A stretch of DNA of 64,000 bases from an uncultured Flavobacteriales bacterium (GTDB taxonomy: Bacteria > Bacteroidota > Bacteroidia > Palsa-965). The notes under the pieces are model-generated. The model did no database searches and was not told the DNA's origin. It saw nothing but the letters and a program-made list of their open reading frames with translations. The stretch covers positions 1,289-65,288 of the forward strand of contig CALJIF010000032.1 in NCBI GenBank assembly GCA_937974275.1. Direction: 5' to 3'. Below are positions 36,726 to 37,016 of this stretch, in pieces. The position numbers and the translations under genes are program-made. How positions within the stretch are numbered: position 1 is the first letter of the stretch; the number at the start of each line of letters is the position of its first letter.

Positions 36726-36760
36726 AATAAAAAAGCCCTCACGGAAATCCGGAGGGCTTC
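36726..36760 (-). terminator. intrinsic terminator / attenuator 2, ~57 nt upstream of the sir ATG
   Basis: Minus strand: AAGCCCTCCGG-ATTT-CCG(t)GAGGGCTT, 11 bp with one bulge, followed by TTTTTTATT. Confidence 0.7.
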
Positions 36761-36777
36761 GCTCAACACACCAACAA

Positions 36778-36888
36778 TCAACTGCACCATGTAAGCATAT
36801 ACCTTCCGGGCTTGCTGTTTGCACAGCAGCACATACACATGCACATACACATGTACGAGGAAAGGAAGGTTAATGCGGTGCGTTTCAT
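36778..36888 (-). CDS. candidate leader peptide 2: MKRTALTFLSSYMCMCMCMCCCANSKPGRYMLTWCS
   Basis: Translated by hand from the minus strand. Ten consecutive codons (36852-36823) are only ATG or TGT/TGC. The stop lies 17 nt before terminator 2, and an A/U-rich stretch precedes ATG 36888. Confidence 0.55.
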   Translation of the reverse strand: MKRTALTFLSSYMCMCMCMCCCANSKPGRYMLTWCS

Positions 36889-36965: not shown

Positions 36966-37016
36966 TCATGGATTCATGCAGCAGTTCATCATCATATTTA
37001 AGTTATTGTTCATCAT
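36966..37016 (-). CDS. candidate leader peptide 1: MMNNNLNMMMNCCMNP
   Basis: Translated by hand from the minus strand. Of 16 codons, 6 are Met, 2 Cys and 6 Asn. The stop lies 21 nt before terminator 1. Confidence 0.45.
   Translation of the reverse strand: MMNNNLNMMMNCCMNP

Follow-up and report, generated by a model that had tools for sequence, protein, structure and literature searches.

Background

The classical leader attenuators are the enterobacterial trpL, hisL, thrL, leuL and ilvL, among which the thr leader mixes Thr with Ile codons and the ilv leader mixes Ile, Leu and Val codons. In this study we analyzed a 64,000-nt stretch of DNA from an uncultured Flavobacteriales bacterium (contig CALJIF010000032.1, positions 1,289 to 65,288 of the forward strand; the whole stretch is called the window below), in which the gene for assimilatory sulfite reductase (sir), the first structural gene of a six-gene operon, is preceded by two small open reading frames (sORFs) with clustered Cys and Met codons. 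We consider it likely that these sORFs and the terminators behind them constitute tandem, multivalent (Cys plus Met) leader-peptide transcription attenuators that gate the operon.

The closest described systems belong to several phyla. Mycobacterial polycysteine sORFs, the 'Cys ribulon' of Canestrari et al. (bioRxiv 10.1101/834739), are leaderless, act at the translational level and have been shown experimentally, and leader peptides of Actinobacterial cys operons have been predicted (Seliverstov et al. 2005, PMC1262725). In Alphaproteobacteria, uORFC-8-2, which lies upstream of Rhodobacterales cysS, is a predicted attenuator (Brewer et al. 2021, PMC8632094). In Bacteroidota, leader peptides have been reported or predicted for trp, ilvE and hisG (the latter two in Flavobacterium psychrophilum; PMC9723704 supplement).

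With the classical attenuators, the window leaders share clustered end-product codons, an antiterminator and a terminator that exclude each other (regions 1-4), a multivalent codon mix and the placing of the stop codon or of region 2 relative to the ribosome footprint; a codon-enriched leader reading frame, a terminator before the first gene, a strand-sharing antiterminator and codon conservation amid drift were all found. They differ from these attenuators in that Cys and Met would be sensed, in that Bacteroidota initiate without Shine-Dalgarno pairing, in the two complete attenuators in series and in the lack of sequence homology. Like the mycobacterial and Actinobacterial leaders, they have a Cys-codon run that would be sensed through stalling upstream of sulfur or cysteine genes at several loci, but unlike the leaderless mycobacterial elements they have canonical terminator/antiterminator pairs, interleaved Met codons and a tandem arrangement. 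The features that define the mycobacterial class (a leaderless 5' AUG, unmasking of the ribosome-binding site and no terminator) do not describe the window, where terminators follow both leaders. uORFC-8-2 similarly has Cys codons in a stem, a terminator with a U-run and predicted ribosome-mediated attenuation; however, it is a single element with two Cys codons only and no Met codons, and its target is cysS of Alphaproteobacteria, whereas the downstream gene in the window is sir and the architecture is different. The Bacteroid-trp (Rfam; Weinberg 2010), ilvE and hisG leaders share the phylum and the inferred mechanism and differ in amino acid and operon; no Rfam match to Bacteroid-trp was found in the window, and the single Trp codon of leader 2 lies outside its Cys/Met run. 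As in tandem riboswitches, T-boxes and S-boxes of Firmicutes, serial terminators would sharpen the response and sulfur genes would be controlled at transcription elongation, and an S-adenosylmethionine (SAM)-I aptamer in series with a Cys leader in Pontibacter (see below) resembles serial S-box control. Unlike these systems, the proposed sensor in the window is the translating ribosome and not an aptamer or a tRNA-binding RNA.

A first-pass annotation of the window had proposed a single Cys/Met-sensing leader-peptide attenuator before sir and was aware of no such attenuator on assimilatory sulfite-reduction genes in Bacteroidota. For Bacteroidota and sir this holds, and full-text literature searches found neither a Bacteroidota Cys/Met leader on sulfur-assimilation genes nor Met-codon leaders; Cys leaders as such, however, had already been described in Actinobacteria and before alphaproteobacterial cysS. 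Naville & Gautheret 2010 make no mention of a Cys/Met leader. The mechanism is a textbook one, and this variant is notable for having leaders in tandem, a mixture of Cys and Met codons, an interchange with a SAM riboswitch and a link to tRNA-Cys. To our knowledge, the ways in which Bacteroidota control sulfur assimilation have hardly been characterised, the enterobacterial CysB paradigm is absent from the phylum, and most of it also lacks the S-box and T-box systems seen in Firmicutes.

Results and discussion

Two Cys/Met-rich sORFs and two terminators precede sir

Across the 64-kb window, there are 957 sORFs that start with ATG and are 6-70 codons long, and each was scored by its densest Cys plus Met stretch of 10 codons. 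Leader 2 was first, with 10 Cys/Met codons out of 10, and leader 1, which lies 130 nt upstream of leader 2, was second with six; all the others had five or fewer. The layout in the direction of transcription is candidate promoter, leader 1, terminator 1, leader 2, terminator 2 and operon, and the elements are as follows.

37061-37029, minus strand: candidate Bacteroidetes-type promoter, TTTG (-33), 21-nt spacer and TATCTTTG (-7), found by pattern match.
37016-36966, minus strand: leader 1 sORF, MMNNNLNMMMNCCMNP and stop codon, from the small-ORF listing.
36961-36932, minus strand: leader-1 antiterminator, GGGAA (36961-36957; 5 nt past the leader-1 stop) with UUCCC (36936-36932) of the terminator-1 5' arm, from the minimum free energy (MFE) structure of a transcript truncated before the terminator 3' arm.
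36944-36908, minus strand: terminator 1, a perfect 12-bp stem AAAAGGCUUUCC/GGAAAGCCUUUU with a 7-nt loop (36944-36914) and a U-tract, from folding.
36888-36778, minus strand: leader 2 sORF, MKRTALTFLSSYMCMCMCMCCCANSKPGRYMLTWCS and stop codon, read from the sequence and the small-ORF listing.
36870-36864, minus strand: region 1, ACCUUCC, leader-2 codons 7-9, from MFE structures.
36852-36823, minus strand: Met/Cys run of ten codons, leader-2 codons 13-22, read directly.
36809-36749, minus strand: leader-2 antiterminator, from the MFE structure of 36822-36746.
36779-36751, minus strand: conserved 29-nt block GAUUGUUGGUGUGUUGAGCGAAGCCCUCC (also given as GATTGTTGGTGTGTTGAGCGAAGCCCTCC), from the alignment of relatives.
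36759-36727, minus strand: terminator 2, a stem of 8 bp plus 3 bp containing a single bulged U, an AUUU loop and a U-tract, from folding (-20.0 kcal/mol).

The first-pass annotation had read leader 2 from the sequence, and on re-reading its coordinates, its translation and its counts of 6 Met and 7 Cys matched exactly, as did the run of ATG TGT ATG TGC ATG TGT ATG TGC TGC TGT and a small hairpin, TGCTGT-GCAA-ACAGCA, at 36828-36813 on the minus strand. The hairpin of terminator 2 (AAGCCCTCCGG-ATTT-CCGTGAGGGCTT, 36759-36733) and the T-run behind it were also confirmed; the hairpin begins 18 nt, not 17 nt as had been given, after the leader-2 stop codon (36780-36778), and the terminator ends ~58 nt before the sir ATG. 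The earlier architecture was borne out for leader 2 and its terminator, but its single-element view was incomplete and had missed the second leader, the second terminator and the promoter motif, as well as a third Cys sORF behind sir (see below). The run opens with two identical tandem copies of the 12-nt unit ATGTGTATGTGC (24 nt, 36852-36829), which suggests that slippage or duplication may have lengthened the sensor in the window lineage.

In leader 1, the six Cys/Met codons of the best ten are clustered at the C-terminal end, and of its ATG codons the second, at 37013, is probably the start that is conserved. Counterparts are present in close relatives (L081, MNNNLNMMMNCCMNP; L169, MNKNLNMMMNCCMKP; L numbers designate the loci compared), and homologues of the leader-1 type ending in ...CCMMC[I/N/A] and the stop codon are found in L014, L083-L086 and L093. 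The promoter-like motif ends 13-16 nt before the leader-1 ATG, implying a short 5' untranslated region (UTR), and fits the -33/-7 promoter consensus of Bacteroides. On its own the motif is not above chance (3 matches against 2.5 expected in the window); nine divergent relatives (L014, L083, L084, L086, L093, L027, L006, L045 and L171) have a TAnnTTTG box at the corresponding place ahead of leader 1.

Alternative folding of the leader RNA and the proposed mechanism

For the leader region (371 nt), the folding energy is -122 kcal/mol, with z = -6.8 relative to shuffled sequences. The ribosome-free fold contains terminator 2, and in it region 1 (ACCUUCC) is paired across the run with GGAAGGU (36807-36801). 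When the run and the RNA upstream of it were treated as occupied, the remaining RNA (36822-36746) folded into the antiterminator with -21.9 kcal/mol, compared with -20.0 kcal/mol for the terminator alone. Region 2 (CCGGAAGGU, 36809-36801), which lies inside the leader-2 reading frame 13 nt past the run, closes on the 5' arm of terminator 2 (CCCUCCGG, 36756-36749). The outer helix consists of CCGGA.AGG with CCU.CCGG, and the inner helices are built from the conserved block and the sequence immediately ahead of the terminator. The complementarity of CCGGAAGG (36809-36802) with CCCTCCGG (36756-36749), which the first-pass annotation had put forward as an antiterminator, was found again and is the outer helix of this alternative fold, adopted once the run is occluded. 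CCGCAACG, an altered form of region 2 CCGGAAGG, is a design only. With the run removed, the same closing helix was the MFE structure in 12/12 diverse leader-2 loci and in 10/10 block-sharing loci (22 further loci).

From these elements and alternative pairings, and from their conservation, spacing and covariation described below, we infer translation of the sORFs, stalling at the run and a regulatory outcome of the following kind. Transcription would start a few nucleotides upstream of leader 1. With enough Cys-tRNA and Met-tRNA, the ribosome would run through the Cys/Met codons of each leader; in leader 1 it would then cover the antiterminator strand (region 2) while at the stop codon, whereas in leader 2 it would translate through region 2, which would re-pair with region 1, so that at both leaders the terminator hairpin would form and RNA polymerase would stop. 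Under a shortage of charged tRNA-Cys or elongator tRNA-Met, the ribosome would stall in the run and leave region 2, 4-20 nt downstream, free. Region 2 would then pair with the 5' arm of the terminator while the 3' arm is still to be transcribed, and the polymerase would read through. Two attenuators in series would give a steeper response with less leak, and the mixed Met/Cys codons would let the operon respond to both sulfur amino acids. The synthesis of both amino acids draws on the sulfide and homoserine that the operon supplies.

Cys/Met leaders are widespread upstream of sir in Bacteroidota

A search with the sir protein provided 80 genome loci and 80 metagenome loci for comparison. In 38 of 78 genome loci, the 600 nt preceding sir contained sORFs with at least five Cys/Met in 10 codons, the initiator excluded, against 0/78 on the reverse complement, 3/780 in shuffled sequences and 1/78 inside the sir coding sequence. 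Many metagenome loci likewise had them, often as a tandem of leader 1 and leader 2. The carriers include Pontibacter, Chitinophaga, Pedobacter, Mucilaginibacter, metagenome-assembled genomes (MAGs) of Flavobacteriales and unclassified Bacteroidia MAGs, and examples of the leaders are ...CCCCCCCSC (Pontibacter), MNFNFIPKQLTAKQMMCCCCKTQ (Pedobacter) and MGYKVSMMMNMCMCCWEHSTD (Chitinophaga). Homologues of leader 2 are found in L001 (MKFTNNQNLNSYMMCMMMCCCMRSDAGGYLAE), L171 (MRRTAKTFLSTCMCYMCMCCCMSSSREGYVSR), L084 (MKTLNYKPETLSCMMCMCCCCMYDTEREDLAAMCS) and others. The tandem pair recurs in L006, L014, L027, L045/L124, L083-L086, L093 and L171, and in these tandems the run lies at the C-terminus of leader 1 and in the middle of leader 2.

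Outside the run, almost no peptide sequence is shared, and the lengths vary from 14 to ~50 amino acids. Both Cys codons are used in the leaders (199 TGT and 119 TGC), the runs show synonymous changes within Pedobacter, and the gaps in the alignment of the window leader with that of L001 are multiples of three. In leaders chosen on Cys alone, the share of Met among non-Cys residues was 22.8% at distances of up to three codons from a Cys but 3.5% further off in the same peptides (odds ratio 8), indicating that Met codons are part of the signal and not an accident of the TG-rich repeat in the window. The retention of the Cys/Met run in short reading frames of several Bacteroidota genera, while the other residues drift, is what the first-pass annotation had expected of sir orthologues if its reading was correct.

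A terminator, that is, a stable hairpin with a T-run, follows the Cys/Met sORF in 43 of 53 cases. In an alignment of 19 leader-2 elements, the terminator stem was 99.2% paired, with two-sided changes in 4 of 7 pairs, which none of 500 shuffles reached. The segment between the run and the terminator was complementary to the terminator 5' arm above dinucleotide shuffles in 65 of 70 unique leaders (mean z -1.76, Wilcoxon p 3e-12, the sequences not being independent). This segment begins a median of ~12 nt after the last run codon, just beyond the footprint of a ribosome stalled at the run. In short leaders it lies 0-8 nt past the stop codon, where a terminating ribosome would cover it, and in long leaders it lies inside the reading frame. 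It pairs with its own arm better than do segments from loci with unrelated arms (median rank 0.16, 0.5 expected), and compensatory pairs are visible by eye (GGAAAGG/CCTTTCC in L006, AGAAGGG/CCCTTCT in L105 and GAAAGGG/CCCTTTT in L045). The compensatory stem changes that the first-pass annotation had asked for were thus clear in the terminators and only modest in the antiterminator on the raw alignment. Taken together, the orthologue survey, the terminator covariation and the alternative folds strongly support its attenuator reading.

Two further features were observed upstream of sir in other loci, and both are absent from the window. A palindromic repeat of ~30 nt, CAGTCAGGAGnnAACTCCTGACTGGAC, occurs in three to six copies between the attenuator terminator and the sir ATG in L001 (~2830-2990) and L101 (~1180-1490). 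The 3' end of a conserved reading frame (...DGPIAMVPCASLNFYHKCDEC...) lies just upstream of the leader, 250-600 nt before sir, in L016, L020, L025, L049, L051, L066 and others; reading frames of this type are present in Pedobacter, Mucilaginibacter and some MAGs, and they may resemble Rrf2-family regulators.

The module is associated with other sulfur genes and RNA sensors

In Pontibacter, a SAM-I aptamer (75 and 69 bits; L002 2320-2424 and L009 2498-2603, and by eye also L018 ~2385-2480) ends ~8 nt before the ATG of the Cys-only leader (...CCCCCCCSC). No terminator lies between the aptamer and the leader, and a second Cys-ending sORF and then sir follow. The SAM riboswitch may gate the translation of the leader peptide; the leader has no Met codons, and the Met-derived signal is sensed by RNA instead.

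In three independent lineages (L045/L124, L085 and L168), the attenuator terminator is immediately followed by a tRNA-Cys(GCA) gene, behind which the next gene lies; the tRNA genes have the following positions.

L045, 2870-2941: tRNA-Cys(GCA).
L124, 510-581: tRNA-Cys(GCA).
L085, 1320-1392: tRNA-Cys(GCA).
L168, 7176-7248, minus strand: tRNA-Cys(GCA).

The exact 21-nt core of the conserved block was found at nine genome loci. Among these block-core loci, the leader/terminator module stands before sir in L165, L167, L169 and L171, before the homoserine dehydrogenase gene (hom) alone in L163, L164 and L166, before cobA and a 1-Cys peroxiredoxin gene in L170, and before tRNA-Cys, peroxiredoxin and hom in L168. 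Its presence before sir, hom, cobA and tRNA-Cys indicates that the module goes with genes for sulfur amino acids and not with sir in particular. When the cysH protein was used to look for loci of a wider regulon, only two relatives, both near-identical, were obtained.

No riboswitch, T-box or other Rfam family was found in the window at the gathering score, and neither permissive nor gathering thresholds gave a family for the window or 20 related loci. A match to RcsR1 over 36729-36842 (26 bits, threshold 60) was judged to be chance.

The operon and a third Cys sORF

The operon consists of six genes. Behind it lies a gene in convergent orientation, and the genes on its flanks encode unrelated sensor kinases. 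The genes were identified from their reading frames and Pfam matches (for sir, NIR_SIR and NIR_SIR_ferr), and the third sORF from small-ORF scoring.

36669-34579, minus strand: sir, assimilatory sulfite/nitrite reductase haemoprotein, 696 amino acids, first structural gene.
34574-34506, minus strand: third Cys sORF, MKSRLQLFRNSRMRCCCCKSSF and stop codon, containing CCCC, between the sir stop and the cobA ATG.
34472-33699, minus strand: cobA.
33692-32991, minus strand: DUF2490.
32994-31507, minus strand: sirohaem synthase-TauE fusion.
31510-30854, minus strand: cysH, PAPS/APS reductase.
30872-29640, minus strand: homoserine dehydrogenase.

The fusion reading frame (32994-31507) joins NAD_binding_7 and Sirohm_synth_M to a TauE/SafE sulfite-exporter-like membrane domain. 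Residues 579-634 of the sir protein are a C-terminal extension with a match to a HEPN-domain Pfam family (E = 3.5e-7); the extension seems to be conserved, the orthologues all being ~680-696 amino acids long.

The third sORF is a possible intra-operon sensor, and its assignment to the system is tentative. CCCC-containing sORFs beginning at the sir stop codon were found in 13 of 158 loci, and some of those downstream of sir share the peptide Y-I-x-I-K-F-E/D-x-CCCC. A possible pairing between the third sORF's Cys codons and an ACAACAA box ahead of cobA had z = -2.6 in the window, and it was significant only there and in two other loci, not across loci.

Evidence against the attenuators, and alternative explanations

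Several observations weigh against tandem leader-peptide attenuation as described above. When a single ribosome footprint was masked in the window, the MFE structure did not flip, the pairing of regions 1 and 2 persisting around the mask; it was the RNA downstream of the stalled ribosome, folded instead, that gave the switch. Steric exclusion, trailing ribosomes or co-transcriptional kinetics must therefore be invoked for the model to work. In leader 2, a distance of 22 nt separates the end of region 2 from the stop codon, too far for a terminating ribosome to cover this region, so that termination in replete cells presumably relies on re-pairing of regions 1 and 2 behind the ribosome. Leader 1 of the window has a weak antiterminator (duplex z = -0.8), the equivalent of which is much stronger in L083, L084, L085, L086 and L093 (z -3.2 to -7.3). 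Covariation of the antiterminator is modest (82% paired), the observed values being reached by 26/500 and 45/500 shuffles on an unbiased, raw MAFFT alignment in which several rows are misaligned. Ten of the 53 leaders, mostly from Pontibacter, have no detectable intrinsic terminator, and Bacteroidota lack a Shine-Dalgarno signal by which the sORF starts could be confirmed. Finally, the attenuator model only partly explains the degree of constraint on the 29-nt block.

It is on this block that a trans-acting factor (an RNA-binding protein, a small RNA or a tRNA) could act as the sensor, with the sORF auxiliary or incidental. The block is invariant in relatives whose sir proteins are only ~56% identical, a constraint unusual for a simple helix strand, and although the 3' half of the antiterminator consists of this block, the partner with which it forms the inner pairing differs between loci. 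We nevertheless regard this explanation as quite unlikely. The block is confined to one sub-lineage of Bacteroidia; most Cys/Met leaders (those of Pedobacter, Chitinophaga, Pontibacter and L083-L093) do without it yet keep the sORF, region 2 and the terminator logic. It has no complementarity to tRNA-Cys, there is no match to the T-box or another Rfam family, and the in-frame clustering of Cys and Met codons would be left unaccounted for. Among candidate partners, pairing with tRNA-Cys in the fashion of a T-box was rejected (214/300 shuffles at least as good), as was pairing with the 3' end of 16S rRNA (19/300 shuffles at least as good, with a hand-entered 16S sequence).

The ribosome may be the sensor while the output is Rho-dependent termination, mRNA stability or control of translation initiation. 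Mycobacterial Cys attenuators sequester the ribosome-binding site (bioRxiv 10.1101/834739), and the frequent lack of a detectable intrinsic terminator in Pontibacter, like the lack of a clear one after the third sORF in the window, points in the same direction. For the window, however, such an output is very unlikely, as canonical GC-rich hairpins with U-tracts follow both leaders and region 2 competes with the terminator 5' arm and not with the sir start region, the sir start lying ~58 nt further downstream.

We regard as highly improbable that the products of the sORFs have a function of their own, as Cys-rich micro-proteins (for example metal- or redox-active peptides, or precursors of ribosomally synthesized and post-translationally modified peptides) co-expressed with the sulfur genes, the hairpins being ordinary terminators. 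The sORF position is conserved, Cys-rich small peptides occur in nature, and the third sORF family does have conserved non-Cys residues, but the leader peptides are nearly unrelated outside the run and differ greatly in length, Met clusters with Cys, and no modification enzymes were found nearby (Pfam, flanking genes). A terminator between a peptide gene and the operon, with an antiterminator positioned by the run, suits a sensor and not a product.

That the run is merely a slippage-generated TG-rich microsatellite in a long 5' UTR, with hairpins that insulate the operon from upstream read-through, would agree with the exact 12-nt duplication and with the non-significant promoter motif, but it is scarcely credible given the same in-frame codon content in different nucleotides across Bacteroidota orders, the near-zero reverse-strand, shuffle and coding-sequence controls, and the links to the SAM riboswitch, tRNA-Cys and hom.

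Conclusions

Beyond the tandem leader-peptide attenuators themselves, a wider reading is possible, if doubtful: a phylum-wide, multi-layer 'Cys/Met ribulon'. In this reading, an operon would have up to three sensing sORFs, namely two transcriptional attenuators and an intra-operon Cys sORF before cobA, and the same module would act on sir, hom, cobA and even tRNA-Cys genes. The fusion to the SAM aptamer in Pontibacter would be a SAM AND Cys logic gate, and the 29-nt block would bind an additional trans-acting factor in the window lineage, resulting in hybrid sensing by ribosome and factor.

The tandem attenuators offer a concrete mechanism for the control of sulfur assimilation that is apparently at work in many soil, freshwater and plant-associated genera, including Pedobacter, Mucilaginibacter, Chitinophaga, Pontibacter and many MAG lineages. 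They would extend leader-peptide attenuation to Cys and Met in a phylum that initiates without Shine-Dalgarno pairing, and would provide a natural example of leader-peptide attenuators in tandem. The SAM riboswitch and poly-Cys leader of Pontibacter would be a rare case in which two RNA sensing principles are interchangeable at one operon. In practical terms, dozens of overlooked sORFs can be annotated, and the leaders may supply Cys/Met-responsive parts for genetic tools in Bacteroidota.

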